Origin: Nemertoderma westbladi
Taxonomy: Eukaryota > Animalia > Xenacoelomorpha
Direction of reading: 5' to 3'
Length of the DNA: 64,000 nucleotides
Assembly: GCA_032718475.1 (NCBI GenBank)
Contig: JAUCBJ010007162.1
Coordinates: 1-64,000 of the forward strand
Position numbers and translations under genes: made by a program. The notes beneath the pieces were generated by a model that saw nothing but the letters and a program-made list of their open reading frames with translations, was not told the DNA's origin and ran no database searches. Shown piece by piece: positions 3,060 to 58,710 of the stretch. Position 1 is the first letter of the stretch. Each line of letters starts with the position of its first letter.

Positions 3060-3220
3060 GAAAACCATACAGTAGCTATGAATTGGTTACTAGGCAATAA
3101 TACTACATTTTGTATAGTTAGGCCTATTGCTGATCGAACGAAAACTGCCCTGGTCCATCATGTGAGGATCGAACCCACGACCTACTGGAGATGTGAATTC
3201 AAAGCAACCACTACACCAAC
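3060..3220 (-). mobile_element. tRNA-derived SINE head, interrupted by RTE copy 2
   Basis: Minus-strand A box TGGTGTAGTGG (3218-3208) and B box GGTTCGATCC (3175-3166), with no complete cloverleaf. The extent of the body is uncertain. Confidence 0.6.
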
Positions 3221-4757
3221 TACTAGGATCGGCATGCTGCATTGCAGCTGCATTTTTAAGAATGCTGTGCCGGCTTGTCAACAAAATTGCACTGCCACAA
3301 CTCCCTATCACCCATGACATTTGCTAGATCATCCGCATCTTTAAGGCCAGTGTCCTTTAAGATGCGTCTCAACAAAGTCATGGGCTGTCCACCATGCTTA
3401 TTCACTCCATGAGGCTGCCAAAGTACAAGATTATGCACTGGCTGGTCCTCACGGCGAAAGCAATGTCCTGCAAAGCGGAGGCGATTTTGTTCTAGTGTCA
3501 AGCTTGGGGGAACCAATGAGAAACCTCCAATGTTATATAGTGTCTGGTTGGAGATGTGTGCATTGTACTTGACACAATGAACCCGGCGTAGCATTCTTGT
3601 GAATGTGCCATCCAGAGATTTGGTGTCCTCAGCAGTTAGAGCCCAGCATGGACTCCCGTAGAGGAGTACTGGAACTACTGCTGCTCTAAATAATCGGACC
3701 TTAAGTTTCCGATTAATCCTAGGTGACTTCCAAATCCTGGAAAGCCTATTCAAGGCTGCCCATGCCTTTCCCTTACGTATTCGAAGGTCCTCACCTGACT
3801 TCCGGATCCATGATCCCAGGTAACAGAAGTCGTCCACATGCTCAAGCATACCATCCTTTGAGCTTATGCTCATCCGATCAGAGACTTGCTGAGGACTTTC
3901 AAAGTTAACTGTCTGAATTTTGGTCTTTCTGGAGTTAATAAAAAGACCAACACTAGAAGCAGCATGTTCTAATGAGCTGAGGAGCCGTTGGGCTCCCTCT
4001 AATGATTCTGAGAGTACTCCTAAGTCATCAGCAAAGTCTAGATCAGTTAGGTACTTGGCAGGATTTCCTCGACTTCTGGAGCCAGTAGGTGGAGTTATCA
4101 TCACCCCATCATCATTATGATGATCTAAGGACATGCGTAGAACATAGTCAACCACAATAATGAACAAGAATGGTGCAAGTGTGTCTCCTTGGGGGACGCC
4201 CCATAACACTTCGAATGGTTCTGTGTCACCGTCAACAGTAGACACAAATGTTGTCGAACCATCGTATACTGATCTGATTGCTGCAATAATTTCATCAGGA
4301 ATCCCATATAATGAAGGTATACTGAACATACGTGACCGAGAAACTGAATCAAAGGCCTTGAAGAAGTCAACAAAGATAACAGCCAGATGCCTGTCTTTCT
4401 TTTTTGATAATTCTTCAATTATCCTTCTAAGTGCCAAAATGGGCTCCATGGTCCCACGACCTTTACGGAACCCATTCTTATTTCCACGGAGCAGTCTCTC
4501 AATGGGATCCCTGATGCGATTTAATAGAATCCTATTGTATAGCTTTGCAGCAATCGAGATCAATGAGATTCCCCGAAAATAACCATAGAGTGTTAGGTTG
4601 CCCTTCTTGGGAACTGGCACCAACTTATTTGTTTTCATTTCTTGTGGGACTCTTGTTGTTCGGTACATGTCTACTATGATGGATAGAACAGTAACGTTCG
4701 AATTTGTTCGTTAACGTTCGAATTTGTAAGACTCTGATTTAAGAACTGAGGCACTCC
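3221..4757 (-). mobile_element. 5'-truncated RTE-clade non-LTR retrotransposon, copy 2 (open RT ORF 3256..4668)
   Basis: Near-identical to copy 1, with motifs GVPQGDTLAP, FADD and RLRFAGHCFRR and the same (TAG)n 3' end. RT-like sequence continues to ~4757, including a local ACAAATTCGAACGTTA duplication. No TSD found. Confidence 0.92.
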
Positions 4758-8597: not shown

Positions 8598-11500
8598 CGC
8601 CTGAGGGAAGACTCTCGAGAAATCATTGATTCTTTATTACAAAGAAATGATTCTCCATTACAAAGAACTGATGACTTAGAGAACAAATGGCATTAATGCA
8701 AGACCATATCACCCTAACAAATAAGAAAGTCGACTCCAAAGCAGCGTCGCAGGATGTGCATATTTTAAAATGCGCCTCTGATGTGAGCGGTATTCATGAC
8801 GAGAATACAGTACATCAGAACGACCGAAGCTCGTATCTAACCAACCTTTTATTAAATTCTTCGGCAGTCGAAACCGACCTCACCAGACATAATATGTCTG
8901 GTGAGGTCGGTTTCGACTGCCGAAGAATTTAATAAAAGGTTGGTTAGATACGAGCTTCGGTCGTTCTGATGTACTGTATTCTCGTCATGAATACCGCTCA
9001 CATCAGAGGCGCACTGTCGGGCTTCGTTTCTAGCCATATTATGGCTAGAAACGAAGCCCGACAGTGCGTCTCCTCAGCTCAAATTTTAAAGTTTGATGGC
9101 AACGAACTGAAATGGCTACCCTTTGCAGAGTTCTGCAAGGACAGTATTCTAGAATCGCCATTGAGTGAACGTGAGAAGCTTAGATATTTATTTAGTTGCC
9201 TGGAAGGACCCCCTAAACAGATGGCTGCAAAATATGTGGGCCATGTAGACGGCATCAACACTGTTTGGGATACTCTAAAGGAGCGGTATGGCAATGAAGA
9301 AAGCTTGGCACGCAACATGTATGACAGATTAATCTCTAAAAATAGATCCACTCAAAACGGGATCGTGGAGTTTAGAGATGAAGTAGAGGAAATTTGTCAC
9401 CAGCTTGATTGGCTAGGACCGAAAAAAGTGTACTATACAATCATGACAGTACAGTTTGTTTTCAGTGCGCTTCCAAAGGGCTCCACTGGGACCAGATGGG
9501 ATCGATACACTTACAATTACAAACTTAAACACAGATGTTTCCCTGATATGGACTCGTTTAGAGGTTTCTTGAAGGCCGAAACCTCCACGTATCTTATCAC
9601 AATGAACCAGGAAAAAAGCACCCATTCAGACACACAGACATTCAAACACTGATAAGACAGCAACCAAGAAGCGATACGCTTATGTTACCAACTATGAAGA
9701 GTGTCCCTGTGATCACTCTGGTTCCGACACAGAGGGATGTGAAAGCATATATTACGGTGAGGTGAACTCCAGAGGTGAAAATAAACACAGTGGCCAAGGC
9801 AAACCAAATAGGAGAACACCTCCTCCCAAGGCCAATAGCACCCCAAGAAAGCATATGAGGATAACCGTAAGGCGACCACGAAGACCTATAATATAATCAC
9901 AGCCGGCACCACCAAACTTAAGTGCCCCCTTTGTAAAATAGACGCACACCCACTTGGGAAATGCAACACCTTCTTAAAAAAGACACTAAAGGAGACGAAA
10001 GAAGGTTTTGGACTTGTCGACATGCTTCTTGTGTCTTAGACCGGAACATTTGCGACGTAAGTGTAGACTAATGAACGTAAAAACGTGTCCGGTGTGTCAG
10101 GGCTCCCATCACCCTTTGCTACACCTAGACCAGACCCCGAAGGAAGAGCTAGACCAACATGTACACTTCACCGATTGTGAGACAGACTCTTCCGATGAAG
10201 GACCGGATGCATTCTACCCTGGAGAGTTTACTGACGACAATGAATGCTGTAACCATGTCAGTGTGTATGAAGCCTTAACCTATGAGGAACCCGCATTGGA
10301 AGATTGTTTCAAATTGGAGAACAATCCCAGCACCCAGTCATTTCAGGATGTCAGAGTCAGAGAGTTTCCGGTTCTCCAAGTCCGGCTCCACATGGGAAGT
10401 AGTAGCGTTGTGGTAAATGCCTTAATGGACACCGGAAGTATGGGCACCTTTATAGACACAGAATTAGCAGAATCCTTGTTCACCAGGGAACAGGGCCACG
10501 CCATGAAATTGACATTATCTGGGATAATGAAATGTTGGCAATCCACAATTGAGACCAAGTATTATAAAGTATCACTGTCCACCCTGCAAGATACCAGTGG
10601 CCGGGACAGGGTCTCTAACATCAAGATGGTCGTCATCCGGAATTTTGCCAAAATTCAGGCTCAGTCCTACGACTGGGATGATGACGCCCTTGTACGTAAT
10701 CATAACATTCCCTGTTTCACCCCAGACTACCCAGGCGTACAGATGTTGATAGGCCAAAATGTACCCGAGGCCTTAGAAGTTCTGGAGAAACGACCCAGAC
10801 ATCCAGAACCAATGTCAGCCTACGCATGTCGGACGAGAGTGGGATGGTTCTGTACCGGGCCTTTCCGGAAAACTCTATTGGAGCAAAAGGGACTGACAAA
10901 TACAGACACCGTTACTTGTAATTTAGTGACCCACCTTTGCAATGAGACCATAGAGACAGAAGAGGACGTCTTGACTACCCCTGACCAAACAGACAGTGAT
11001 AGTGACGCACCCCTGTCCTCTGACCAAGACTGTTCCCTAACTAGGTCCAGTGAACCCGACATTGTACCTCCGATGACTAAGCTAGCATTAGATACATCAC
11101 CCGACTTACGACTGCATCGGACGGCTGATGACCATAGGGATGAATTTTCACCTCTGGTCATAAATAATATCAAATGGGATATTTACATAAACGACAACCC
11201 GATATCAGCCCTGATCGTAACAGAAGCCATCGACATTGTTCAAGGGACAGTAAACTGCCTGAAACTTGGAGGATTTTGCCTAACAAAATTCACGAGTAAT
11301 TCCCGTGAGTTTTTAAAGGCCATACCCCCCGCCGAGCGTGGCGATACCCAACTGGACTTGAGTAAGGACGGTCTACCAGAGACGAAGCCATTAAGTCTTC
11401 GTTGGCTTACAGAAAGTAACATTGTGGTATTTAAAGTGAAATTGAGAAAGGGCGGTACCCAAACCAAACATTGCCTAGGCATACTCAGCGCTTATTTCGA

Positions 11501-11798
11501 CCCCCTAGGATTCAGCAACCCAGTTATATTGTGGGCTCGAGACCTTGTTCCACGTATGTGGAAGGAGAATGATAGTAGAAACATGCGTCAGCGTGGATGG
11601 CCTGGTAAGATCAGAGTAGATCAGAGTAGTACTGAGGGAAAAAGGCAAGCTAAACTTCGTCCCCCAGAGACTCAACCGTCCTATAGGCCGCCTCTGCCTG
11701 CTAGAAATGGCACGCGAAGAATCTGGCAACTACCTCAAGCAGGAAGTCAAGCCGACAGACTTGACATATTTTTTTTTTTTTTATTAGTTTTGGATTGA
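8598..11798 (+). pseudogene. Element A: disrupted BEL/Pao gag-protease-(partial RT) polyprotein
   Basis: BEL/Pao Gag core (ILKFDGNELKWLPF...EKLRYLFSCLEGPP), CCHC knuckles (CFLCLRPEHLRRKC; CPVCQGSHHPLLH) and protease ALMDTGS. Only the RT end follows (YINDN in place of YVDD; GGFCLTKFTSNS; FDPLG). Several frameshifts; no integrase. Confidence 0.9.
8771..9068. repeat. Two abutting perfect inverted repeats (121-bp arms 8771-8891/8893-9013; 29-bp arms 9010-9038/9040-9068)
   Basis: Read directly. The same peptide appears in ORFs 8687..8932(+) and 8852..9037(-). Confidence 0.95.
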
Positions 11799-13150
11799 GT
11801 GCACTGCATATCACACTCAAGCGTGGGAACGGGTTATGTTGCGTCATTAACCACTGACCCCATACGTTTTTAAAAATATGCCATATGATTCAGCTTGACA
11901 GGCTAACATAATTTCTACTTACATCGCTTCCGTCCCCAGATAACAATAGGACTATGGGATGTTTCATGATAAACTGTTTTATACACAGTGCATGAAACTT
12001 GATCTCAGTTCTAGAACATTCTAGAATACTATTAAGAAAAGTGGGATGTTCATGATAAGTCATTATACACACGACGCATGAAACCTGAACCCAACTCTTG
12101 ACAACATGTTGTGATAAGTCATTATTAAACATGACGCGCAGCCAACCAAAACCCTTAATAATTGTATGATGACGGTGATAATACAATTGAATGTGGAATC
12201 CATATCCTTTATTTCGGTTAAACCAAACTCTGGGTAAATTCTGGAAACGGCCCGCCACTTCTTGTATAACCCAAGTACATAAGGGAGTAACAAATAAAAT
12301 TATAATAAACTACACTAGTCATGATAAGTCATTATTAAACATGACGCATAACAATAACAAACCTTGGTCTTGCTGTATTATGACGGCCCAATAACACTTG
12401 AATACAGAGTCTTAATTACTACTCCCGCTTCTTGTCAATCGCCAGAGTAAAGTAAGAGATGTCAATTATTCGTTGGCTTGAAACTTCAAGAACCAACATA
12501 GGTTGATATTGATTAATACAATATCCATTCATATAAATCCGTTCAAGTCACTGTAATAATAAGCATTACGGGAACAGTCACGGTCCACTTAGTGGCTTTA
12601 GAACTTTTTAACAAAGTTCTAGAATTTTATCGTATATTTTTCCTAAAATTAATACCTTTAAATTTATTTAATAAGTATCCATGGAAATTTTAAATATCAT
12701 CATTCGGGAAAAAGTAGGTTTTGTAACGGACATTTGTGCATGTTGTGAAATTGGGTGTGTTAGTTTGTGTGATAGTACAAATAACAGCTATTCTCTGTGT
12801 GTTTACTCTAGCGAACCGAGACCCTATTGCAGACTAATCAGTCGTACTATAACAGTCAATACAACCCCCGGCGGACAGCCGTTGGAGAGACCAGTCTCGA
12901 GCTTCCCCTATGTGTTAGCCGCTTGTCTTCCACCCGTTCTTCCACATCTGTTGGCTTGGGAGTAGACATAGTGGCGCTGACGTGGCCAGGGGCGGCATGG
13001 GTCCTTGTCGGGCTGGGGATGGAGGGCGGCTCAGCATCGCCGGCCCTAAACAAACTCAAGTTATCATAACAATTATATCGACTCATTGGTTTGCTTTGTT
13101 GAATTATTAATATATTTATACATTGTTGATAACAATTATGGATATTTCTA

Positions 13151-14822
13151 ATGACGACTCAATATATAATCTTGATACACAGCGATAACGACTCTCGGAG
13201 GAATATAACCGGAGTAGCAAAAACATTTATGGATAACCGTCGCCTCGTCCACTGGAACTTGGATGTAGCCCTCATTGAAGATGATTTCAGATATGTCGAA
13301 CAAACACAAATATACGTGACACGCCCAGTTATGAATTTATAAGAGTAGTGTGTGGAGAACCCGGTTCATTGGATACTTCATGGACACCAGTAGAACTGAC
13401 CACCGAAGTGGCTAATGCTGAATGGTTACATACAGTAAATGCTATTCACAGCTACGGTGTTATGATCTACGAAAATGAAGGCTCAATACCGGATCCTGAG
13501 CTCGGTTCAACTCGGTTGATTCATATCCGCGGCCTCATTGGAGCCACGCGCGTTTTTACGTGTACTTGTCACGGCACCAACAGCGTTTTCCCAGCCTTGA
13601 CCACCTATCAACGCCGTGCGAGACATCAACAATTTGTTAAAGCGGAGGCTTATGTCAATGACACGCACCGACACCCGGCCACGGGAATAGACGCAGCTTT
13701 ATTGACACAACCCGTACTGGACATTCTCTTAGACGAATCAGTTTATAAGCTCGGTTAAGCCATATATCGAGATTTGACAGACGATTTCCCTATCGCCCAT
13801 GATATACCATATCCCTTTGTTGACACCCAAGTCATCCTTCCTTGGGCGCAACCCCGTGGCTTCTTCCGGGATATGTATCGATGGAACACTAATGATACGT
13901 ATAGCAGAGTTGACCATACATCCTCTTGCCACATTGCGTTTCAAGAGTATGGTTGGACTTGGAACTTTAAGGAAACCGATCGCAAGACGTATTCCAAAGT
14001 TTATGGTGATTCATATTCGCCTTATTACTTTCAAGGACCACTCACCGCCCCTGGCGCTGTATATAGCTTTATGAGTGTCCCCTTGCGCCCCTCGCTAGCA
14101 ATGTACCTCATATTCGAGAACCAAGCATTATTAAGATGGCTTGCAGATGTCTGTAGCTGCGTGCTGAGACGCACCCATTGCTGTTGGGAACCCAACTCGC
14201 CAAACTCGATGAACTTGGTAAATTCCTGAACTTCAAATGCTTTTGGCGTTTCTTAACCCCCTTCGCCAACATTGACAGTCAGTTCCGTGTGAAATCACTG
14301 TCTCAGCAAGAGCTACATCGCTCCGCAGCGGATGAGCTAGCCAGCGGTGGCTTTGCTATATTCCGAGACGTATGTATTTCCAATCTCCATCAATCAGTGA
14401 TCGAGAAACCCATTATCAAACCTGGTTTCTCGGTTGGACAAATACAGACTGACGTTATGGACGCCCCCGACCAATAGGAGGAACCAATCCACCTAGAAGC
14501 GACCTCAGTAGCCGCCTCTGTCATGCTTATCCGATTTGGTGTCGTAATCCAAACCATCGCCTCCGGACCAGTGCAGGCTGCTGTGTGGAAGCGCTTAGCT
14601 GTTCCTCTGGTATTAGAGATCCGTCAACTGGCTGTCGACTCGGGCGCAACGAGACCCATTGAGTTCCTATCCTTGCCTAGTACCTCCACCGGGACATATG
14701 GCAACTGTCCGACTTCACTGACACCAGACACGGTAGATATCCACCCTGGTCCCAACGAGATGCTTTCAAGCAATGACGAGATGTTACCCAGGCCTCAAAT
14801 GCCTGCGAGGAAGAGGAAATGA
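13151..14822 (+). pseudogene. Element A accessory ORF (~550 codons, disrupted), homologous to the element B 650-aa ORF
   Basis: Consecutive ORFs 13151..13342, 13348..13758, 13774..14229, 14178..14477 and 14523..14822 are joined by two in-frame stops and two frameshifts. Motif blocks align with ORF 16249..18201. It ends in basic PARKRK. Confidence 0.7.
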
Positions 14823-14955
14823 CTATTTATGCGAAGTACACCTAATGCATACCAAGCGGAAGCGATAATATAAGATTACTACCAGTTAGCCTGTCAATCT
14901 TTATAAAATCACTGTACTCGTTCGTCAACCGTTAAGTATGTTATAAAACTATCAT

Positions 14956-16222
14956 TGTTCGCGCTTTCGAAGACCTTTAGCAGTTTAACCTGCCAAAATT
15001 TATATGTCTTTTCGTTAATTAAAACCACTTTAGCATACGACAATAATTTATGCTAATACGCAAAACATTAGCCGAAGTCAGCCCATGCGCGATCATTCAC
15101 CCGATGGATCTACACCCGGGAGACTGAATTCGGATGCTTGAATTGTATTATTACAGTGTAAGGTTGCAGTGTATACCTAATGTATTATTCGATAGATCGT
15201 TAATAATTAATCTCTGACAGATATTATTGGCTTTCGGGAAATATTAACAGTTCCTTTAGGACGTGGCGCTTTATCTATTTAAACAGAACTAAGACTTATA
15301 CTAAACGCAACGATACTGCTTATGATTAAAGTATAAAACGTATTCTTTAGGAAATACTTTGTTACCAATCACAATCATACACACTATTCTGCCGACAGTC
15401 AGTACATTTGATCACACATAAAGAGAGCAGTAATTGACTCACGTAGGGTCTGCTAAATAACATTGGATTCAATACACACCACATTAATATAAATCGCAAT
15501 TGTTATATATAGCCGGTCTCTCTAACCTGTAGTGTTATCAAGAAAATTGGGAATTGGGTGATTTATCCGTATTATCCAAATAGCAATATTTCCATCAACA
15601 AATATTTACAATTAATAACTGACGGTAAAATAACAGTACAAACAATATGATTAATGAGTTAGGTTAGATGATTGATTTAAGTCAGATTTGATGAGTATGT
15701 TAATTAAGATTGATCAATTAGGTAACAGTTTATACTTTCGATAATTCAAGCAGTTTACGGTACAGCAGTATCTATCCAAAAATGCCGGTGTTTCTGGCTT
15801 AGACAGCAATAACAACAAAGTAACAAGAAAAAACAGTAAGACTGAACACTCTCCTTATGATCGGCAGAAAAGCTACACGTCGACAGGAAAAACCGCCCTG
15901 ATTGGCCCAAGCCAAACAAAGAACCACGCGTCCAATGGCTGTTTCCATGTCAGCAACCAGCTGCTAGATGTCGTAATATGAATCATCACGGCTAAGCTGT
16001 GAAAGGTGGTTGGTGCATTACAAGTTTTTTTGTCTTACCATGTCCGCTAAAACACGTATATAGCAGAATGATTTTTATGTCCGTTAAAACACCTGTAAAG
16101 GTACCTTGCGGGCGAGGGGAATATATATACAGTTAGAAAACCCTTTTTAGAGTATTCCAGCGCCTGGGGGGGAACTGGCCAGCATAGGCAAACGTATCAG
16201 TTATCCCACAAAAGCTTTTACA
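14956..16222 (-). repeat. Element B 3' LTR
   Basis: Direct repeat of 26700-27966; plus strand reads TGTTCGCG...TTTTACA. Confidence 0.97.
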
Positions 16223-16248
16223 CCGCTCCCAGAAAATGGGATTTAAGT

Positions 16249-18201
16249 CTATAAAATATACAAAATCACAGTTTCTAAAATATAAAAATACTCTAAACAG
16301 TTAGTCTTTCTTGCGCGGACGGCGTTTACGCAGTTTTTTAAAGCTAGCAAGAGTCCTTTTCTCTTTGGGGCGAGCCACTTTACGAGGAGGGCTATAACTC
16401 CTGGGTGAAGGGTGCAATATGATTGCATCAGAAGGTATGGGATTGCGATCTGTATATCCGGTTTTACCATATAATATTGAGTCAGATTAACATAATAAGA
16501 GTGATCTTTAATTCCATAAAAAGAGTTCTGTAAAGGTCTAGCGCGTATGTTGACCTCGTGTACCATACGACGGACAAGATCCGCTCGATTGTCCGGAGGT
16601 TCAACGAGTATACCGTCAACTCGAGCGGCCTCGATTGGCGGACGCTGTAACATAGGAGCGTCAGCGATAAGATTTTGCGATCTTATGCTGATATCAACCG
16701 GTTGGGGTTGTATCTTTGCGAAAAGTTTATCTCCGAAATGCGGAACCATCGAGGGATGACGGACGGTTTTAGAGTAGAGATCGGTTATGAGTATCTGAGT
16801 TTCGGGTTGGGCTAAAGCGGCTTCTTCCCTCTCATCCATTTCCGTATGCCTCTCCTCCAGTTGATTCTCCTCCGCTTGTTTCTGCAAGCGTTCTTCCAGA
16901 AACTCCTGTAGAGAATACGTACGTCCAAGCTCGATGTCCTCTTCGAGGTTTTGGATTTCTCTATCAAACTGCGGCAAGGCTAGCTCTTTTACCGATTGGA
17001 CCTGCTGCTGTAATTTACGTTTCTCTAGAAAATCCTGGGTTCCCTTTCCGATTTTCTGTCGGATGGCGTCTAGAGCGTTTCTAATGACACTCTCCTCGAC
17101 TTCCGTGGCAGGTTGTATCGGCGTTAATCCTGGCCGGTTGTAAGGATTAAAAGGCGAGGTTAGATGTCCGCGTCCCAATCCGGTTAAATAGGATGGTCGA
17201 ATATCTAACGAACCTACCGCCGGAGCACCACCGATTAGCTGCTCGGGTAACACCAAATCCTTGAACAGTGAGTATAATTCGGGAGGATCTGTGATACTGT
17301 TAGGATCAAGAGTTTGAGGTCTCACGGGGAAATGGGGAGGTCTGACCGAGTATTCCGGAACTCTGATCATGGGTTTATTTAGCGATCGTTTTAAACGGGC
17401 GATCGCAGGGGATACGTCGAACAGGTTTCGCTCGAAACTCCCGTAAGTATAACGCGTAAAACTGTGTTTAGCACAACGTCTCCGCGGATGTTTATGTCTT
17501 TCCGTTTGCTGGTTAGGTCTAGGACATGAGTCACAATAATACCAAAGACGTACGTCCTGCAGAGGAAACGCGGGTGATCGTTCTCCAGTTTTGCAATACT
17601 CTTCCATTTGTTCAAAACTGTCCGGGACAACAGGTAGTGGACGATCTGCGGTAAGATACATCATGGTGAAATAGAGTCGTTTGAGTTCTACCATGGGATC
17701 GTGATGGATACCTTGAGGATATCGAGTCTCTAAGTTCTGTTGACTGGCAATATTGAGATAGGTTTCCCGCAAAAATTCCACGTAGTCGTTGAAGTTGATA
17801 CGCTTATCGGGTTCTTCAACGTTTTCTCTGTCGAGTAGGTTGCGGATAGAGTTCTCGTGTTCTATTCTCAGTTTATCATTACGATTCCTCTGAGTATGAT
17901 ATTGGAATAAAACCATTTCTCTTTCGGTTTCTACATCATCGGTATCATGTAAATCGGTAGGATGACCGGTAGTTAAGAAGTCCATATACGTACCATTACG
18001 ATTCGTATAGCGAGCGGTGAATTTTCTATAGTCCGCTTCGCGCGTAAGTTGTTCCTGGGACATCGGCGGTTCGATATAACGACCATCGTCCTCCGTAATA
18101 GTCGGATCAGCTTCACAGCGTATCAAGCTATCCACAAACGCTTGTAAAGGTAGAGTATATCGTTCTCTAATACCAAGGTCATCTTCGATCAATTCCGTCA
18201 T
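16249..18201 (-). CDS. Element B accessory protein (650 aa, unknown function) in the env position
   Basis: Uninterrupted 1953-bp ORF on the gag strand, ending 26 bp before the 3' LTR. No signal peptide or clear TM segment seen. It has a Cys/His cluster (CDSC...HKH...CAKH), a Pro-rich middle and a Glu/Gln-rich coiled-coil-like stretch. Confidence 0.85.
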   Translation of the reverse strand: MTELIEDDLGIRERYTLPLQAFVDSLIRCEADPTITEDDGRYIEPPMSQEQLTREADYRKFTARYTNRNGTYMDFLTTGHPTDLHDTDDVETEREMVLFQYHTQRNRNDKLRIEHENSIRNLLDRENVEEPDKRINFNDYVEFLRETYLNIASQQNLETRYPQGIHHDPMVELKRLYFTMMYLTADRPLPVVPDSFEQMEEYCKTGERSPAFPLQDVRLWYYCDSCPRPNQQTERHKHPRRRCAKHSFTRYTYGSFERNLFDVSPAIARLKRSLNKPMIRVPEYSVRPPHFPVRPQTLDPNSITDPPELYSLFKDLVLPEQLIGGAPAVGSLDIRPSYLTGLGRGHLTSPFNPYNRPGLTPIQPATEVEESVIRNALDAIRQKIGKGTQDFLEKRKLQQQVQSVKELALPQFDREIQNLEEDIELGRTYSLQEFLEERLQKQAEENQLEERHTEMDEREEAALAQPETQILITDLYSKTVRHPSMVPHFGDKLFAKIQPQPVDISIRSQNLIADAPMLQRPPIEAARVDGILVEPPDNRADLVRRMVHEVNIRARPLQNSFYGIKDHSYYVNLTQYYMVKPDIQIAIPYLLMQSYCTLHPGVIALLVKWLAPKRKGLLLALKNCVNAVRARKTNCLEYFYILETVILYIL

Positions 18202-19661
18202 ATCCGCTATCTGAGTTTATTAATATCAATATAAGTTAATATTTTAGGCAAGCGGGCGTCGCTTCCTACTATGCTTTTTGCCCCCGGACAGTGGGTTTCT
18301 CAGCGCCGATGTACCGCTGTCGCAGTGTTTACGCCAACATGTAGCACAGCACGACAACGATAACCGGCACAAGTCCCACCACTGTCCGTCCCAAAGGCTT
18401 GAATCCACTTGAGGTTATCTCGGTAGAGTTAGGGCTATTTTACAATTGCGATTAGCTACTGTAAACACACTTTAGTAGTAACATTCACCTATAAACGCAC
18501 AAATTCCATACAATCATTACTTACTGCACACATGCATACCATTTGTCCGTTAGTCAGTGTCTTCCAGAATGTCACGTTATTACTATGTATCCTTGGATAC
18601 TAATAGTGCGCTATGTATACTCTTATGCTACGCAATGGGGCAAGCTTTTTATTGTTCTTTTAACTTGCTTCTAATTCTAGCGTGGGTGTTGCCATGGTGA
18701 CATTATGGAAAACTAGCGGTAGAATTAGGGCAATCCTCATGCATACAGATCTGGGATGTTATTTAATAGTAATTCTTTAATTGTCAATATCCTCTTTATG
18801 CATGATTTTATAAATTTTATCGGCTATTGACTATATGTTGGAGATTCTCACACTCTAGCACACTCAATATGAATCTCCGCTCCCATGATCTATTAATTAC
18901 TGGAATTTTGGGAATGTTATAAATTGCACAAAATGACAATTTATGAAATTCATTCGAATATGAATTTAAATTTATTCCCGTGAATTTTATTATTTGATAT
19001 TAAATTGACATAAATTTTATTCCAGAGCATATCTGGGAACTCAGGATCCTTAATTCTGTAAAAGTTGTCTTTTAAGAATATCGGTAGGTGCCACGATATC
19101 TTAATCGACTAGAATTACAGATGGTCAAAAGTTTAACAGATTTATTTGCGATTTACGCTACTGTTAGAGGGACATCACGCTACTATATGTATTATTTGTT
19201 ATAAGGTAGAAGAGCAATATCGCACGAAGCAATGTCAGTGTGAAGAGGCAAGTCGTTTCCAAGGTCTACCCAGAGCTTGGTTTAGCCGAGACACGAGGAT
19301 CTGAACTTTGCATTCCTAATACTCTGCCTATCAATAATACTTAAATATAGTAGTGGCTTTATTGTACTTTAAGAAGTACGGACATTTCATCTTACTATAG
19401 TCTCGCATTTATAATATAATACGGACAGTAAGGAAAGAGAAAATAATTACTTCTTGCCGTCGCACTAAATATATATTATAAGTAATTATGTACGTAATAA
19501 ACACTAATATATTGCACTAATTTACTAAATATTCTAAACTAACATTCTACTAAATAAAATTAAAGAAAACGATTATAATAAAATTACATAATAATACATA
19601 CATAAATATAAAATAAAAACAAATATAAAATGATATAGTCACACGCCCACTCCATATGTTA

Positions 19662-22600
19662 TTACGTTATGGAGTCCCTAGATATTTGTCGGATTAGGGA
19701 AGTGGTCGTAGGAAGAGTATCTTGCCTTCCATAGTTTCCGGACAGTTTTCGGTCTCTTTCCAGTAAACATAAACGACTAGCTGGGCGATTGAGTGGTTGT
19801 GTTAGTTTCTCCGCTCCCTTGGCCTGTCTACTCTCCGCCGTGGTAAGATGAGGAGGCCATTCTTCTTCTTCTTTACTTAAGAAGTCGGATCCACCTAACC
19901 AGCCTGGAGTATCTATCAGTTCTTGAGGAGTTGCTCCTCTGGAAGCGATGTCGGCTGGATTAATCGTCCCAAGGCAATGTCTCCATTGATCTACATTGGA
20001 GTTAATATCGTCATTATCTGAGGAGTATGGTGTTCCCTCAGTTGGGTCGTCCACATCACTGCTCTCCACTTCCCCCTTTACTTGGTATACCTGTTGTTGA
20101 GGTAATCTCTCTTTGAGAGTTCTACGGGAAGGGCCAGTGAAGTACCAACCTACTCTAGTTCTTACCGCATAGGTTTGTAGTGGCTGTGGTTGAGCAGGCC
20201 GTTTCTCTAATGGCTCGAGCGCCTCATGCGCGTTTTGGCCGATGAGGATTTGCACTCCAGGATAATCGGTTTGGAATCGAGGTATCTCAAGATGTTGGAT
20301 GCTCTCGTCCTCGTCCCAGTTATAAGGTGCTACTTGGGTAGTAGCGAAGTTCTTTATTGCTACCATTTTTACTGACCTTATACTTTGTTCTCCTAATTTA
20401 TCCTGTGGGGTGGACAACGCACCTATATAGTAATCTGCCGTTAGGGTAGATTTCCAAACCTGTATAATTCCTGACATATTCAATTTAGTCCGGAACTTGG
20501 GTTGTCCAGCAAAGATATCTTCGGCTAGTTCTTGATCGATGAATGTTCCTGTGCTGCCGGAGTCAAGTAGGGCGTTCACTATGTAACTCTTGTTGAGACC
20601 ATGAACTCTCACTTGCACTACAGGAAATTCTCTTATTCCTATGTTGGAAGTTGGAACTTTCCAAGATGGTTGTTTGTCAAAAGGAGTTGGAGTAAACTCG
20701 TCAGTGTCCTTTTCATCCGTAAGTGCTCGATACACTGTGGTATTTATTAGATAACAGGATTCGTTGGCATCGGAGAATTCGTCTGTATAGAATCCTTCCC
20801 ACTCAGAACCTTGGTCAGTGTCGTTCACATCACTGAATTGGACATGTAGTTCGGGCTCACTTACCTGACTCGGGTTGTCTCGTTCGAACTCACTGTGTAA
20901 CAAGATGTGATGTTTCGCGCCACACTTTGCACACTTTACGTCGGAGTAACAGGTTCGCCGTTGGTGTCCTGATCTGAGGCAATTATAGCATAACCGCTTA
21001 TTCCACAGGACTGTACGTCTGTCTACAGGGGATTTCTTTAGAAATTCAGCACACGCACTCAAACGGTGGGGCCTGTCGCACAGCGCACATTTTGGTTTGA
21101 TGTTACTCACCTTAACTTGGTTAACGTTATGCACTCTCGTTCTTTCTTCGGGCTTTCTTCCGTGAATTCTCTTAGGAGACGTAGGAGGAGTTGTTGTTAC
21201 CTGTTCTCTCCTGTCACTGGTTCGAGACTTGTATTTACTTACGTCTTTATAGGTCTTGTTGTCATAGTAAGATTTTGCTGTGTCTTTCCCGCTGTCCTCT
21301 TCTTGAGAAGCTTGGCTCTCGCCGTCGTCAGTATAACACACTGGTATTATCCTTCTCCTAGAATCGGGTTTCTCACTTACCTTATTTTCCGATGTTTTCT
21401 CTCTGGCCTGCCTTATGAGTTGTAATTTTACTTCACTATCTAAGAAAGACATGAGATCAGCCATGGTAGGACTTCGTCGTTGTTGTTCATTCATGTACAA
21501 CACTTTCTTGTCCCAGCGTGTACATACTCCACCCTTTGGTAAAGTAGAGACTACGGCTCCAATAACCATGGAACTCTGGTATTCGTGCGACTTACCTAAC
21601 CAGTCCAGTTGTCTACAGATCTCTTGTATTTCATCGGAAAATTCTATAATCCCACTACTAAGGAAGTGTCGGGGGGCTACTAACTTTGTATACAAATACT
21701 TAGCTATGTTATCCTTGTTACCATACCTGATGTTTAATGTATCCCAAACTTGTCTTAATCCATCTGGATGTCCAATAAACTTTAACGCCATTAACTTGGG
21801 AGGTCCTTCCAAGCACTTGATGAGGAATCTAAGTTTCTCTCCGTTAGATAGTACAGAGTTCTGTATGCTATCTTTGTAATATTCGTTGAAAGGTAACCAT
21901 TTCATCTCATCTCCATTGAATTTGATGATCTCTCCCACTTTGACCGCTTGGCGGGCTTCGGTTCTAGCCATCTGACGCGTAAAGCTTTCTTGGGCCATCG
22001 TGTTATTTAATATCGAATTATCGGTATACAAATTTCTCGGATCATTATCAGGTCTATAGGGAATATCATTAATAACAGGTCTATAATCACCCTTAATAGG
22101 GTTTGCTATAGGAGTTTCAACTTCACTAGCAGTATATATGCGTGTAGGCTCCACACCTTGCGCATGTGATACTTCAGACCTAACGGGTTGACTCAATGTT
22201 ACCAGGGGCATTGGTATGCCTTTTTGTATATTGACTAATTTGTCGCGTTCTAGCGCGATACTTTGCTGCACTTCTTGCAACTCTGCTCTACTTTCCCTCA
22301 CCGTTCCCTTAAGTTGGTGGACAGTCTCCTGCATCTGTCCTAGCAGAAGATTCATCCCCCGCCGTCCCTCTTCCACCCACTCAACCGCTGAAGCGGGAGT
22401 CGCCAACATAGTAGCGGGCTGACGCGGGACGACGGGAGACAAATTATTGATTTCTCTCTCTGCTATCTGGACAGGGGTGTTTGCATGGGCTGTTCCACCG
22501 GGTACAGGCAGTGTAGTGCTATGTAAAGGGAATTTAGAGTTAAGCTCTGGAAGTGTAGGGGTCTCTAGCACAGAAGTGACTTTGGGAATTACAGGCCTAA

Positions 22601-24332
22601 TTATTTCAGGTTCATCGACTATAGTAGGGAGTCTTTTGACCTGGATAAATTGTTCTATAGGTTCTGCCCTACCTAAATCTGTGCTAGTTAGCTGTCTTTT
22701 AACAGCTGGGGGCAAATCAGGCAATTTACGACGGTAATATGTTTTTCTACGCCTACTTAGATGAGATCTATCTCCTCCGCCTTCAGGGTCTGTAGTATCG
22801 CCTTCCTCCGATGATGTGTACCCTTGGCGCTTGGGAGTAGATTTTCTCATCATCTGCATCTGATTAGCAGTATACTGTTTATTTATACTGTCTTGTGTCT
22901 CTTGCAGATTTTCCAACTCCAGTTGGGTAGTCTGCTCAGATGCTCTCCTTTCTACTTCTGCCACTGCCTTCGCTGCCTTTCTTTCGGCTTCTGCTTCTTT
23001 TCTTTTGGCTTCTGCTTCTTTTCTTTCTGCTTCTGCTTCCGCTGCTCTTGCCTTTCTTTCGGCTTCTGCTTCCTTTCTTTCGGCTTCTGCATCCTTTCTT
23101 TCGGCTTCTGCATCTGCCATAACCGCCGCCATATCCGCCGCCTTTTGTTCCTCTATCCTTCTTTTCTTTATTTGTTCTTCTCGGACTCTAGTGAGGCGGA
23201 GTTTTTCATCACATTCAGCTTGGTTTGCAGCTAACATTTCGGCATCGATTGAGTCTAACACAAGCTTGGTTCCTTCACTATTAGGGGAAAGTCCATGTAG
23301 CCGTCTCCTCAACTCTTCGTCTCCTAGGAATCGCTGATAGTCTGACAAATAAATGTCGATAGCGTCTCTAGTTCGCGGTTTCTCGGCGGCCTCTTCGCTT
23401 TCCTCTTGAGCAAGGGTGACATCAGTTTGTTCGGAGACATCAGTCGGTTCCTCATAGATTGATCTCTCAGCCAGCTGGGATTTCCACGGGGCTGTTTCCT
23501 GTACTTTGAGATCTACTCGATGTAGCCAAGTTTTGACAGCAACCTGCAGCGACGTGTCCTGTCTTCTTTTGGAAGTTTCCTCAAAGGCTGAGAGGATTAG
23601 TCGAATGCGTAGGGTTCTTTCGCGTATTTGATATAGCAGTTCTTCCTGCTCTTGAGGTCCGTGAGGTTGTCGAAACAGTTGTTCCTCCAATCGCTCCAAG
23701 GATCCGAAGAATCCCTGCACATATCCTGCTGCCGACCTCTTCCAAACAGCTGGATCCATTGTATCTTTTGCCACTCCCATCCTGTGTATATCTTCCCAAG
23801 TAGCCTCGGACATATCAAACGGAAGTCCGAGTCCGGGAAAGTTCCATTGTGATTCAACAATAGATCTCAATTCTTCCCTGGCGTATCCCGCGTAATTATC
23901 TTGGGTCGATTGCTTATTCTTCGTCCAGTCGGTTTGATGTTCTTCCACCGCAATGAGTATAGTAGTCAGCACTGCAGCAGGAAGAGTAAGAAGGGGGTCC
24001 GAGTAGACTGTATCAGCCATCTGCACTCCATGTTCGGGAGTCAACTCTACAGTGTCCGAACTGCTGGAGCTATCAGGTCTCTGGGAAGTAGGTTCTTGAC
24101 CAAGATGTTGCTGCGATAGGACAGCTGCCTCTTGGTCCCGTTTTACCTGTGCCTGAGTGCCTATGATGGACCTATGGTGGACTAGCCTAGGGTCTGATAC
24201 TACTGGAGGGATGACCTTTTTTACAGTAGGAGGTGAGCCGAACTTCTCTATTATTCGCTCCACTCTCCTATCTGAATCACAGATAGTGGTCTCGATCAGA
24301 CTGTCCGACAGGTTTTGCTGAGTGTCAGACAT
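19662..24332 (-). CDS. gag: Element B Gag-aspartic protease polyprotein (1556 aa), lacking RT, most of RNase H, and integrase
   Basis: Coiled coil with AEAERKE repeats, BEL/Pao Gag core (IIKFNGDEMKWLPF...EKLRFLIKCLEGPP), three knuckles (CALCDRPHRLSAC, CYNCLRSGHQRRTC, CAKCGAKHHILLH) and protease ALLDSGS. It then goes straight to the BEL RNase H-end signature WRHCLGTINPADIASRG...WP. Confidence 0.95.
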   Translation of the reverse strand: MSDTQQNLSDSLIETTICDSDRRVERIIEKFGSPPTVKKVIPPVVSDPRLVHHRSIIGTQAQVKRDQEAAVLSQQHLGQEPTSQRPDSSSSSDTVELTPEHGVQMADTVYSDPLLTLPAAVLTTILIAVEEHQTDWTKNKQSTQDNYAGYAREELRSIVESQWNFPGLGLPFDMSEATWEDIHRMGVAKDTMDPAVWKRSAAGYVQGFFGSLERLEEQLFRQPHGPQEQEELLYQIRERTLRIRLILSAFEETSKRRQDTSLQVAVKTWLHRVDLKVQETAPWKSQLAERSIYEEPTDVSEQTDVTLAQEESEEAAEKPRTRDAIDIYLSDYQRFLGDEELRRRLHGLSPNSEGTKLVLDSIDAEMLAANQAECDEKLRLTRVREEQIKKRRIEEQKAADMAAVMADAEAERKDAEAERKEAEAERKARAAEAEAERKEAEAKRKEAEAERKAAKAVAEVERRASEQTTQLELENLQETQDSINKQYTANQMQMMRKSTPKRQGYTSSEEGDTTDPEGGGDRSHLSRRRKTYYRRKLPDLPPAVKRQLTSTDLGRAEPIEQFIQVKRLPTIVDEPEIIRPVIPKVTSVLETPTLPELNSKFPLHSTTLPVPGGTAHANTPVQIAEREINNLSPVVPRQPATMLATPASAVEWVEEGRRGMNLLLGQMQETVHQLKGTVRESRAELQEVQQSIALERDKLVNIQKGIPMPLVTLSQPVRSEVSHAQGVEPTRIYTASEVETPIANPIKGDYRPVINDIPYRPDNDPRNLYTDNSILNNTMAQESFTRQMARTEARQAVKVGEIIKFNGDEMKWLPFNEYYKDSIQNSVLSNGEKLRFLIKCLEGPPKLMALKFIGHPDGLRQVWDTLNIRYGNKDNIAKYLYTKLVAPRHFLSSGIIEFSDEIQEICRQLDWLGKSHEYQSSMVIGAVVSTLPKGGVCTRWDKKVLYMNEQQRRSPTMADLMSFLDSEVKLQLIRQAREKTSENKVSEKPDSRRRIIPVCYTDDGESQASQEEDSGKDTAKSYYDNKTYKDVSKYKSRTSDRREQVTTTPPTSPKRIHGRKPEERTRVHNVNQVKVSNIKPKCALCDRPHRLSACAEFLKKSPVDRRTVLWNKRLCYNCLRSGHQRRTCYSDVKCAKCGAKHHILLHSEFERDNPSQVSEPELHVQFSDVNDTDQGSEWEGFYTDEFSDANESCYLINTTVYRALTDEKDTDEFTPTPFDKQPSWKVPTSNIGIREFPVVQVRVHGLNKSYIVNALLDSGSTGTFIDQELAEDIFAGQPKFRTKLNMSGIIQVWKSTLTADYYIGALSTPQDKLGEQSIRSVKMVAIKNFATTQVAPYNWDEDESIQHLEIPRFQTDYPGVQILIGQNAHEALEPLEKRPAQPQPLQTYAVRTRVGWYFTGPSRRTLKERLPQQQVYQVKGEVESSDVDDPTEGTPYSSDNDDINSNVDQWRHCLGTINPADIASRGATPQELIDTPGWLGGSDFLSKEEEEWPPHLTTAESRQAKGAEKLTQPLNRPASRLCLLERDRKLSGNYGRQDTLPTTTSLIRQISRDSIT

Positions 24333-25691
24333 GTTTAGTTATACAGTTGAATGTCTACTACTATAGTTTCAGTTAAAGCAAGTCTAGTAATTCAGTATGA
24401 CCGCAAGCCTAGCGATTTATTACCGGTACCGTTACTCAGTGGAACGTGATATATATACAATATATTAGAATACCGGTATGCTTATAATATATAAGTATTA
24501 TTACAGACTAGATTTGTCACAGAGTACCGGTATATAATTTTAGCACAAATATATATATATATAGTAGGCCTATAATGAATACCGGTATACAGCTTACACT
24601 TATAGTATATAAGTATAATTCTGGACTAGAATTAATTACAGAGTACCGGTATGATTTCAGCTCAAATTTATAGAAATAAATATAATAAGCCTATGGTAAG
24701 TACCGGTATGTCAATTATTTTTAGAATAATTGAATTTCTGAATATTTTGGGGTTACTTCGTTACTTTAACTTACTTTATTACCGTTATTTAAGCAGTAGT
24801 CCAACTGACAGTGAGACCTAGTCGTTGTATGGCAGGCCTACTGTTTATAAATCGTTTGAGTTGATTTATAATAGATATATACCCGTTTAAAAGGGTTTTT
24901 GACAATGTTTGAAATAAATGTTATTATTTCTGGGGAAGTCACTACACAGAAGCTGAACGCTTCTCAGTGAAGTGCTATTTATTTGACACTAAAACTGATA
25001 ATTCTAATTTACCTAAGTTACTTAATACTACGAATTACTTACGATACGGGTGAGATTAATTCTCTAATTAAACACAACAAAATATTACGTACGAAATTTT
25101 TAGGGTAATTTTACAGGAAGTCTACAAACCAGTCCAACAAAGGGTTAGATTTCTGGCTATTACAAAGGACAGAGTACTACGGTGTTTAAATAATAAGTAG
25201 TAGTAAATATATTGTACTGTCCAGATAGGAAAATACCACCGCCTGACGACCTATAACCGTATCGCTATAGGTACTACGTTATGTATCACGGATTGTTCCT
25301 ATCCAGAAGTTAATAGAGCTAACGAATGTGCCTATCAACCACTTTACAATACAAAAATACTGCCTACACTAATTACTTCGGAAGGCACTGTACTCTAAAC
25401 CCTAAATTAGGTACAAGTACCGGTATAACAAATAATCAGTAGTTAAATATACTTGAACAGTTAAAAGAACCACGGCATCTGCTGGAGTGACCGAAGCACA
25501 AAGTCGTCAGTCTTTACCTACGCCAAGCAGCCCTGATGTAGTACCGGGGTTAGTTTAACTATAACGGTATGTATAACAAGCACAATTACTGTAGGAATAA
25601 ACTTGGGGACATGAATGTTGCGAATAATCGCATAAACTCTGAATAATAAATATTACGCTACCCGTACAGAATACTCAAACAAATACAAACC

Positions 25692-26213
25692 AAACGCTGG
25701 CAGACTACTATCAAGCCTAAACAAACTACTGTATGTGCAGATTCTGAAACTGTTAGTTAGTATGCGTGCTAACACGGTAGTACGACTTACTCTTTAAGAG
25801 GGGATTGACCTTACAGTGTTGACTGCCCCAACTTACTAACGGCACTTGATCAGACCAACTCTACACACGCAGCAATCCCTTCAGACCTAAAAATAGCTAG
25901 ACAACAATCCAGCCTACAAATATTTGAGTAATAACTATTACGGTACCTGAACAGACCACACAAACAAACACAGGCCAAAACACTGGCAGACTACGATCAA
26001 GCCTAAATAAACTACGGTATATGCAGACTCTGAAACTGTTAGTTAGTATGCGTGCTAACACGGTAGTACGACTTACTCTTTAAGAGGGGATTGACCTTAC
26101 AGTGTTGACTGCCCCAACTTACTAACGGCACTTTATCAGACAAACTCTACACACGCCGTAATCTCTCCAAACCCAACCACAGTCAGACAGCAGCTCAGCC
26201 TACAATTATCTGA
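25692..26213. repeat. ~286-bp-period direct duplication in the element B leader
   Basis: Block CTGGCAGACTAC...CAGCCTACAA is present twice, with a near-identical core. Confidence 0.9.
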
Positions 26214-26495
26214 ACAATCTGAGCAGGGTCACACGCCTTCTGCTCAATATTAGCCTACTAGTAAATAAAACTGACAGAAATAGACCTAAGTAAAATCTCA
26301 ATAAAAACCAGGCGTCCCCGATTTAATATCGAGACCTACCGGTATACAATAATCAAAATCGAATAATACTAATGTACTTGTACAGCAGTACCGGTACCGG
26401 TGATGACAGTTAGGCCTACTGACCTACAGAAGCACCGGTTCAGTTTTACCAGTCACTACGGTATTTTGCAACCTTATTGCCTACTGCAATAAGAT

Positions 26496-26699
26496 TGTAA
26501 ACCGTTACTGTTCTCCAGAACAGTATTAAACTGTATTTAATGCTTACACTTGCAACCTTATTGCCTACTGCAATAAGATTAATTATAAACTGTTACTGTT
26601 CGACAGAACAGTTAATAATTGATATAAACTGTTACTGTTCGTCAGAACAGTATTAAACTGTAGTTAATGCTTACACTGCAATACAATATAAACTGTTAC
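26496..26699 (-). promoter_or_regulatory. Element B PBS-position region: four copies of GAACA-GTAACAGTTTATA plus short hairpins; no TGG-type tRNA PBS
   Basis: 13-mer at 26687-26699, 26623-26635 and 26584-26596, with a variant at 26496-26508. Its complement lies in the LTRs at 27466-27478 and 15722-15734. Confidence 0.8.
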
Positions 26700-27966
26700 T
26701 GTTCGCGCTTTCGAAGACCTTTAGCAGTTTAACCTGCCAAAATTTATATGTCTTTTCGTTAATTAAAACCACTTTAGCATACGACAATAATTTATGCTAA
26801 TACGCAAAACATTAGCCGAAGTCAGCCCATGCGCGATCATTCACCCGATGGATCTACACCTGGGAGACTGAATTCGGATGCTTGAATTGTATTATTACAG
26901 TGTAAGGTTGCAGTGTATACCTAATGTATTATTCGATAGATCGTTAATAATTAATCTCTGACAGATATTATTGGCTTTCGGGAAATATTAACAGTTCCTT
27001 TAGGACGTGGCGCTTTATCTATTTAAACAGAACTAAGACTTATACTAAACGCAACGATACTGCTTATGATTAAAGTATAAAACGTATTCTTTAGGAAATA
27101 CTTTGTTACCAATCACAATCATACACACTATTCTGCCGACAGTCAGTACATTTGATCACACATAAAGAGAGCAGTAATTGACTCACGTAGGGTCTGCTAA
27201 ATAACATTGGATTCAATACACACCACATTAATATAAATCGCAATTGTTATATATAGCCGGTCTCTCTAACCTGTAGTGTTATCAAGAAAATTGGGAATTG
27301 GGTGATTTATCCGTATTATCCAAATAGCAATATTTCCATCAACAAATATTTACAATTAATAACTGACGGTAAAATAACAGTACAAACAATATGATTAATG
27401 AGTTAGGTTAGATGATTGATTTAAGTCAGATTTGATGAGTATGTTAATTAAGATTGATCAATTAGGTAACAGTTTATACTTTCGATAATTCAAGCAGTTT
27501 ACGGTACAGCAGTATCTATCCAAAAATGCCGGTGTTTCTGGCTTAGACAGCAATAACAACAAAGTAACAAGAAAAAACAGTAAGACTGAACACTCTCCTT
27601 ATGATCGGCAGAAAAGCTACACGTCGACAGGAAAAACCGCCCTGATTGGCCCAAGCCAAACAAAGAACCATGCGTCCAATGGCTGTTTCCATGTCAGCAA
27701 CCAGCTGCTAGATGTCGTAATATGAATCATCACGGCTAAGCTGTGAAAGGTGGTTGGTGCATTACAAGTTTTTTTGTCTTACCATGTCCGCTAAAACACG
27801 TATATAGCAGAATGATTTTTATGTCCGTTAAAACACCTGTAAAGGTACCTTGCGGGCGAGGGGAATATATATACAGTTAGAAAACCCTTTTTAGAGTATT
27901 CCAGCGCCTGGGGGGGAACTGGCCAGCATAGGCAAACGTATCAGTTATCCCACAAAAGCTTTTACA
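26700..27966 (-). repeat. Element B 5' LTR
   Basis: Direct repeat of 14956-16222; contains a minus-strand GCCAATCAG (CCAAT box) near 27642-27650. Confidence 0.97.
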
Positions 27967-28806
27967 ATCATATTTGTAAATAACGAGCAATGTGTATTTC
28001 TTATTATGAGAGTGAAATTCGATATATTAGTCGAATTTGTGTATTTTATATTTGAAGGATAATATGACTCAATATTTACCTACTTACATCGATTAATTTA
28101 CCTACCTACCATATTTGTAAATATATTAAACTCTAATATTGTTTGAAAGGTCGTTTAATACTTATTTAGTCTTACCAGAAGTGACTCAACAAACTTTATT
28201 ACTTTATATGAGGAAGTTGATCTACCCTTAATTAATTTCGTTTAATTTTAGTTAGAATGTTTAACGCATTTAATTGTATGTAGCGAGTATTTGATATCGA
28301 AGTCACCTTTGATTGTTGAAAGATTGTATATACTCTTTTCCATGCAACTTTCCGAAAAAACTCAATATTGTGTTACTCATAGAACGATTGTTGAACTTGT
28401 ACGTAATTTTAGGGAACGATTTTGCTGCACACACTAACTGCATATCGAAATCTTATATTTTTATCAGAGAATCATTCAATTTCAGTGCGTATGATAATTA
28501 TGCCTAACTCATGTTGTATACCACCGTGAACCTTGTTTTTATATGTTGCCTAGCAGCAGTTGTGGTAGTGCCGAACTCTCATTGGTAACTACCGGTGCAG
28601 GTATTCTTGCGTCCTGTTGGCCATTCTATTTTTGCTGTATCGCTTGTTTATATAGTCGATGTTCATCCCATTACTCTCAGGCATAACCTAACATCATATT
28701 AGCCTGTTGCGAGTCATGTAACTTGCAGGACTCATGATATTTCACCTTGCTGCATGCATTTTAACATCTTGCTGTATTACATTATTAAATATTATTGCTT
28801 TACTAT

Positions 28807-40700: not shown

Positions 40701-40994
40701 TGATCTAGGATGGTTTGAGAGTCGAGACGGACGAGTTCTTTCAGTATTGAGACCGTCCCCGGGCCCGGCAGCAGCGGTTTGGCGTAGCGATTCCCGGTTA
40801 GAACTCGGCTCACGAATAAGAGTTTCATTGAGAGATATTAAGCTCCCTCCGATCGATATATTGTCATCGCTTGGTATGTTGGGCACATTTCTTGACTCCT
40901 CCATTTCCCTTTGTGGGCTTAAAGGAAGATTCATGATAGGCTGACCATCCGTAGAAGGGATGGCATCTAGTCTAGGGGGTGTATGATTTGACAT
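37745..40994 (-). pseudogene. Element C gag-like ORF (N-terminal, coiled-coil and linker part), two frameshifts
   Basis: Overlapping ORFs 39576..40994, 37853..39649 and 35542..37917. A Ser/Arg-rich SNISRTSSTKSARLRR segment followed by a coiled coil resembles BEL/Pao Gag N-termini and element B's layout. No capsid core, knuckle or pol motifs seen, so the family assignment is an inference. Confidence 0.65.
38610..39430 (-). repeat. In-frame 18-bp minisatellite (PSTVDI/PSTVRI) with 54-bp higher-order period
   Basis: About 45 units visible in ORF 37853..39649. Confidence 0.95.
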
Positions 40995-58484: not shown

Positions 58485-58710
58485 GGGAATATATTTTCCG
58501 GTTTTGATGACAACTTTCTAGCACGAGCCGAAGCATTGGCTGCTGTTGATGCCTGCGCGAAAATACAGTCAGGCAATGCGGCACAGCTGGGCGCCACAAT
58601 AAAGGACGACCCAGGGGCCATGATAATGGCAAACAAATACACCGGGTCTGGGAGGTACAGCCAGGAGCAAGGGATGATGGGTCTAACTAGTCCAGAACAC
58701 ACACAGTTCG
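58485..58710 (+). CDS. POU4: POU class IV transcription factor, exon 2 (POU-IV box)
   Basis: Acceptor TTCTTACAG|. GNIFSGFDDNFLARAEALAAVD is the class IV upstream homology motif. Donor G|GTGAGT, phase 1. Confidence 0.93.

Follow-up and report, generated by a model that had tools for sequence, protein, structure and literature searches.

An intact open reading frame (ORF) of 650 amino acids, here called ORF2, occupies the env position of a BEL/Pao retrotransposon derivative in the genome of the xenacoelomorph Nemertoderma westbladi, and it very probably represents a genuine, constrained gene that does not encode a recognisable Env. The element carrying it, referred to as B, lies on the minus strand at 14956-27966 of the window, which is the whole 64,000-nucleotide (nt) stretch of DNA that was analysed (assembly GCA_032718475.1, contig JAUCBJ010007162.1, positions 1 to 64,000). 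B was inserted about 130 base pairs (bp) downstream of a decayed ORF in a second BEL/Pao derivative, A, and the ORFs of the two elements are probably homologous. The combination of reverse transcriptase (RT), RNase H and integrase that characterizes autonomous BEL/Pao elements was found in neither B nor A.

Element B and its ORF2

B is a young insertion, whose two 1267-bp long terminal repeats (LTRs; 5' LTR at 26700..27966 and 3' LTR at 14956..16222, both on the minus strand and bounded by TG...CA) differ at 2 of 1267 sites. A 5-bp target duplication (ATCAT) flanks the element at 14951-14955 and 27967-27971, and the loose ends of aligned contigs show that A-type sequence runs on into what follows 27971. 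A short purine tract is located just before the 3' LTR. The A sequence at the insertion site (14941-14955) happens to resemble the junction between the B LTR and its primer site, and the LTR match thereby seemed about 10 nt longer. The LTRs with their target-site duplication, together with a BEL-type Gag (DUF1759 and zinc knuckles) and protease, identify B as a BEL/Pao derivative, a group described in outline from metazoan genomes (PMC3118150). Its polyprotein of 1556 amino acids (19662..24332, minus strand) comprises an N-terminal extension, Gag, protease and a short in-frame post-RNase H motif, covering positions 104-617 and 1159-1219 of the 1734-position BEL polyprotein profile; by this profile, RT, RNase H and integrase are absent, with only remnants left. 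The N-terminal extension of Gag (about 780 residues, 21990-24332) is composed of Ala/Glu/Arg/Lys-rich repeats whose number differs among copies.

ORF2 runs from 18201 to 16249 on the minus strand, between gag-protease and the 3' LTR as the initial annotation had described, and its stop codon lies 27 nt ahead of that LTR. By aligning the contigs of four public runs to B, substitutions and gaps could be examined along the element. Among the 40 best supported of 1961 substitution rows, 10 of the 19 substitutions in ORF2 were synonymous compared with an expected fraction of 0.29 (p 0.025), while gag-protease had 5 of 11 and 10 further rows were non-coding. The 32 contig pieces listed included 14 from ORF2 (563 substitutions, 2 gap letters), 15 from gag-protease (412 substitutions, 10 gap letters) and 3 from the spacer of B (40 substitutions, 23 gap letters). 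Thus, both patterns point to a constraint on ORF2 about equal to that on gag-protease. In run X1, 66,042 contigs fell on 8.2 kilobases (kb) of B versus 1,356 on 2.5 kb of A, which suggests that the B family is large, the contig numbers as such giving no copy count.

Upstream of both the A and the B ORF, a GC-rich island is present. In B it spans 18211..18460 (minus strand) and ends in an acceptor-like CAG located 9 nt ahead of the ORF2 start codon, essentially where a CTCAG of this kind had been noticed previously (about 10 nt before the ATG at 18201). In one diverged DNA contig, the match to B stops exactly at 18210, the base immediately following the acceptor-like AG, which hints, if only weakly, at an exon boundary. 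Upstream of ORF2 there is also a short hydrophobic frame, which was considered as a possible transmembrane (TM) exon and was rejected, as it contains no start codon and a one-base indel is common in it.

Several regions can be distinguished in the ORF2 protein, including an acidic helical N-terminal part (residues 1-220), a zinc-knuckle-like motif, a Pro-rich linker, E/Q-rich long helices (366-465) and a hydrophobic C-terminal part (561-650). The zinc-knuckle-like motif (residues 220-246; 17464..17544, minus strand) has the form W-x2-C-x2-C-x3-N...C-x2-H around an Arg/His-rich stretch; its ligand residues C223, C226, C243 and H246 correspond to the Cys/His cluster reported earlier, and no Pfam match was obtained for it. 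We presume a likeness to the RanBP2-type RNA-binding zinc fingers. The C-terminal part is 50% hydrophobic with an apolar tail at the end, and only 2 N-glycosylation sequons are present in the protein.

By eye and by hydropathy, the signal peptide and C-terminal TM helix of an Env were not found in ORF2, for which the best 19-residue hydropathy was 1.33. The initial annotation had extended their absence to both ORFs, and this is less sure for the TM helix of the A ORF, in which one window, located in an uncertain part, reached 1.76. The view that ORF2 is not a typical Env was borne out by the hydropathy value and by the lack of any match to an Env family, and we conclude from its sequence that it is not a known or recognisable Env.

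Searches for relatives of ORF2 were negative throughout. No Pfam family was matched at E<=1 and no catalytic domain (GDSL, DEDDy or dUTPase) was detected; comparison with a BEL protein bearing an F-type env gave nothing (best E 11). No match was obtained in a set of 5.8 billion proteins (lengths 357-1138 and 30-356 only), the Atlas (best values 0.76 and 0.81), PDB sequences (best E 0.2) or PHROGs, nor, for ORF2 and gag-protease alike, among metagenome and viral contigs. The lone match among 1.84 billion representatives (E 3.3e-5 over 44 residues) was dismissed as repeat-driven, the target being a 5185-residue protein with 15 such stretches. AlphaFold models built from single sequences had predicted local distance difference test (pLDDT) scores of 39 for ORF2 and 29 for the A ORF, which are too low for use, and Foldseek with the ORF2 model at this pLDDT gave no match at E<=0.001.

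Relationship to the decayed ORF of element A

Element A is a 5'-truncated copy on the plus strand, with no LTRs located, in which gag-protease and the end of the RT/connection region are retained (8771..11798; positions 118-639 and 854-1006 of the same 1734-position profile) and integrase is absent. Its truncated end starts with a perfect 121-nt fold-back (8771-9013) adjoining a 3.9-kb hexamer repeat, and a second hairpin lies at 9006-9072. The decayed ORF follows at 13151..14822 (plus strand), interrupted by two frame breaks (near 13300 and 14170) and two stops (13756 and 14475). It had been described as an ORF of about 550 codons; a broken ORF is indeed in place, and its codon number and C-terminus are not established. 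The start is doubtful, because the majority letters of other copies give a stop at codon 23 unless there is an unlisted indel. One other A copy has 677 extra letters near 14530, so that a longer family protein is possible and the PARKRK terminus of A uncertain. The PARKRK codons consist of a purine tract followed by TG, possibly a polypurine tract; the PKRK of B lies at residues 612-615 of 650 and is paired with the A motif in no alignment. The previously proposed sharing of C-terminal nuclear localization motifs is doubtful.

Evidence for selection on the A family comes from 16 of the 40 best supported of 539 substitution rows, after 14 upstream, 6 frame-uncertain and 4 indel-adjacent rows had been dropped. 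Of the polymorphic sites in the family, 6 of 7 showed synonymous changes, as opposed to 0 of 9 among the sites altered almost exclusively in this copy (Fisher p 0.0009), which suggests that the family gene was under purifying selection and that the present copy is decaying. In two diverged A-family contigs, the matches are confined to 13221-13301, 13801-13868 and 14236-14296. Pieces of the A ORF were scanned against three resources only and gave best E values of 0.12 (Pfam), 0.52 (PDB sequences) and 0.032 (PHROGs).

The two elements are related to each other in their remaining coding parts, with an identity of 48% in Gag (94/196) and 45% in protease (148/327); the closest database relative is 25% identical over most of this region. 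The spacing noted by the initial annotation, about 1.4 kb between polyprotein stop and downstream ORF, was confirmed in both elements (A, 1352 nt; B, 1460 nt). Of the three collinear blocks that had been aligned by eye, the first (13172..13300, plus strand; matching B residues 4-44) held up, with 15 identities over 43 columns and a score of 55 that was equalled by 3 of 500 full, 6 of 500 window and 0 of 2000 N-terminal shuffles. One of the diverged A-family contigs matches nowhere but in the 3' part of this block (13221-13301). The other two were at chance level: block 2 scored 11 (3/17 identical), equalled by 1084 of 341,187 A/B 17-mer pairs, and the best 7-mer of block 3 scored 19, equalled by 60 of 353,007 pairs. 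The pairwise alignment recommended with shuffled controls gave a split result, in which block 1 was significant alone and the global alignment was no better than shuffles (260/500).

A chain aligner permitting long jumps gave a score of 88 at a jump cost of 25, which was reached in 0 of 150 sequences under each of two shuffling schemes; at a cost of 15, the score was reached by 3 and 11 of 150 shuffles. The second-best A/B segment (14205..14339, plus strand; B residues 128-173, E 0.19) overlaps the diverged-contig block 14236-14296, and the two best segments thus fall on two of the three blocks kept in diverged A-family contigs. Moreover, a 48-nt element is shared by the spacers of A (12214..12261, plus strand) and B (19242..19289, minus strand), about 400 nt past the pol stop in both. 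The two copies are 79% identical (E 2.8e-7; score reached in 0 of 300 simulations), and the B copy can fold into a stem-loop. Possession of this common element supports the positional homology of the two ORFs, and the comparisons as a whole make their homology probable.

The 48-nt element is regarded as a candidate cis site. Rfam contained nothing matching it, and its interpretation as an integrase-tail remnant was rejected; it resembles one by eye, and a small profile gave an independent E value of 0.21 in A and nothing in B.

Priming, proposed role and competing explanations

The primer-site position of B (26497..26699, minus strand) is unusual. The 5' LTR junction lacks a transfer RNA (tRNA)-type primer site with TGG, although an internal tRNA fragment may act as primer. 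Instead, the 5' LTR is directly followed by 13 nt that are perfectly complementary to LTR positions 489-501 (27466..27478, minus strand; 15722-15734 in the 3' LTR), a candidate self-primer. Complementarity of 13 nt or more appeared in 5 of 20000 Markov simulations, the site having been spotted post hoc. The 13-nt site occurs four times in the leader, as the first site, two more exact copies and one variant. Complementarity of a primer site to the element's own LTR is the property on which Tf1-type self-priming is recognised, and the arrangement in B can be considered a candidate self-priming signature. On the other hand, the first letters of the 13-mer are TATAAA, so that it may represent a TATA box and lie outside the transcript. 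A primer assembled by splicing was rejected, as each of 28 upstream GT donors added at most 2 Watson-Crick pairs to the 13-nt pairing.

As a plausible and still tentative reading, ORF2 may be an intracellular, oligomeric, nucleic-acid-binding accessory protein that is expressed from a subgenomic RNA and does not function as an Env. B would make its own Gag/protease particles and depend on an autonomous relative for RT and integrase. Translation of ORF2 would use an RNA produced by splicing or internal initiation and entered at the CAG 9 nt before the ATG; the zinc-knuckle/Arg-rich motif of ORF2 is predicted to bind element RNA or DNA, and its E/Q-rich helices to oligomerise. The protein would then raise the output, export or silencing escape of element RNA, like retroviral accessory factors. 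A more speculative extension, which we consider improbable as a whole, is that a long-established BEL/Pao lineage possesses a novel class of accessory protein, by which derivatives without RT and integrase outnumber their helpers, through an own particle, priming by own RNA, and ORF2 acting on the conserved cis site to recruit helper enzymes or to lift host silencing of own copies.

A number of observations weigh against the accessory-gene reading or the homology and constraint on which it builds. If the A ORF is taken from 13220, the local score drops to 45 and is reached in 38 of 1000 shuffles; BLOSUM45 settings were mostly not significant for A and B; and the chain without block 1 was reached by 12 of 150 (cost 25) and 113 of 150 (cost 15) shuffles. 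The zinc-knuckle-like motif of B has no recognisable counterpart in A, and the low-confidence models show a helical N-terminal half in B and many strands in the middle of A. The substitution rows of B and A were picked by the tool, are not independent and could stem from a small number of haplotypes; the 80% split used for the A sites was chosen after the rows had been seen. Furthermore, weak selection is expected on a trans-acting gene in a non-autonomous copy, and the constraint in B may therefore come from an autonomous parent. Since neither a homologue nor a family nor a usable model exists for ORF2, its function rests on motifs read by eye.

In one alternative, the two ORFs would be distinct captured genes, alike in no more than the first ~45 codons or not at all, at a cargo slot common to their lineage. 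Such an origin agrees with the chance-level blocks 2 and 3, the non-significant global alignment, Cys motifs that do not correspond and different predicted secondary structures, and the exchange of unrelated ORF3s in the same slot is outlined for rotifer LTR elements (PMC5408684). We nevertheless consider it unlikely in view of the chain test at cost 25 (0/150), the coincidence of the best two segments with blocks conserved in the A family, and the spacer element common to both. About equally unlikely is a structural role in the particle or membrane, in which ORF2, held in place through its hydrophobic C-terminal part, would stand in for Env in a non-canonical way and move particles within or between cells. 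Its env position, the probable acceptor before the ATG, the apolar tail of residues 561-650 and the hydropathy window of 1.76 in A are in line with this role, as is the Env-free cell-to-cell spread outlined for Drosophila MDG1-group elements (10.1101/2025.03.14.642691). However, the sORF2 proteins described there are short and have a clear TM helix, unlike ORF2, which in B has a hydropathy of 1.33, no signal peptide by eye, 2 sequons and no Env family match.

Passive carriage, with ORF2 having served an autonomous parent and being intact in B through youth and inheritance, appears somewhat less likely again. The 2/1267 LTR differences of B and the decay of the A copy suit it, and the diverged contigs are not assignable to autonomous or deleted elements; yet in contigs ~84-87% identical to B, retained ORF2 stretches of 700-800 nt contain 0-2 gap letters, and B itself has lost most of pol while retaining ORF2. 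Finally, a captured host gene or enzyme that has diverged past recognition and gives a catalytic benefit to host or element is very improbable: GDSL esterase and DEDDy exonuclease ORF3s are outlined for rotifer elements (PMC5408684), but nothing was found for ORF2 in Pfam, PDB, PHROGs, the Atlas or the large databases.

Returning to the accessory-gene reading, the idea that an old conserved cargo gene was kept by elements lacking RT and integrase can be retained only in part. A constrained non-Env gene is well founded and the A/B homology is probable, whereas homology over the full length and retention since an old shared loss are not sustained. The pol deletions of A and B differ, and each element may therefore descend separately from an autonomous, ORF2-bearing parent.

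Other features of the window and comparison with known systems

Besides A and B, a third, decayed BEL/Pao fragment that includes an integrase region is present at 44281-45418 and provides the only integrase match in the window; no ORF2-like sequence was found downstream of it by tblastn with B ORF2. A 1.4-kb duplication (339-1742 and 3219-4621, 98% identical) contains an RT fragment with DUF6451, probably of non-LTR type. On the minus strand at 37853-40994, two overlapping ORFs (594 and 472 amino acids) adjoin a second hexamer repeat array; one of them contains 54-nt Pro-rich tandem repeats, and no convincing Pfam match was obtained for them. A tandem array of 4 kb with a period of ~32 nt occupies 58687-62653.

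Judged from titles and the opening of abstracts, no literature was found on a non-Env ORF or on self-priming in BEL/Pao elements, and Repbase-type annotations may hold the family. What appears to be new is a putative orphan accessory gene in the env slot of BEL/Pao, non-Env cargo in this slot being already known from rotifers and plants. A large, constrained, non-Env gene in a high-copy element without the three enzymes would imply a function valued above autonomy. Moreover, B offers an intact, young and multi-copy gene suited to studying the self-regulation and silencing evasion of LTR elements in animals.

In the literature consulted, the extra genes of BEL/Pao elements are captured viral envelopes of F- or gB-type (PMC13524379). 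Drosophila roo (F-type) and mosquito BEL elements (Chuviridae/gB-like glycoprotein; PMC13524379) resemble A and B in that an additional sense-strand ORF follows pol ahead of the 3' LTR, but ORF2 has no Env match or clear TM helix, and A and B lack RT and integrase. In animals, the env slot of LTR elements can also hold cargo other than Env, as outlined for the ORF3s of bdelloid rotifers, which, unlike ORF2 with no match at all, are recognisable enzymes (GDSL esterase and DEDDy exonuclease) beside gag and pol (PMC5408684). In maize, gene23 of Grande likewise occupies the interval from pol to the 3' LTR as a conserved ORF of orphan type, and its nuclear protein, with a proposed accessory role, offers a precedent for the accessory reading of ORF2; in contrast to ORF2, gene23 is antisense, has its own promoter and belongs to a plant element (reviewed in PMC7264820). 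The sORF2 of the MDG1 group is a further non-Env accessory gene of an animal LTR element, differing in that it encodes a short TM protein in gypsy-type elements, whereas ORF2 has 650 amino acids and no clear TM helix (10.1101/2025.03.14.642691, in outline).

With regard to priming, self-priming signatures are described in outline for the Tf1/Tj1, Tcn1 and TAR groups (PMC4600332, PMC6317226). The putative signature of B resembles that of Tf1/Tj1 in that the primer site by the 5' LTR can pair with a stretch of the same element's LTR, while the known groups, as outlined in these sources, belong to gypsy (Tf1/Sushi and Tcn1) and copia (TAR, Houba and Osr-1) and B belongs to BEL/Pao (PMC4600332, PMC6317226). 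The self-complementary primer site of B may allow tRNA-free priming to be tested in BEL/Pao.

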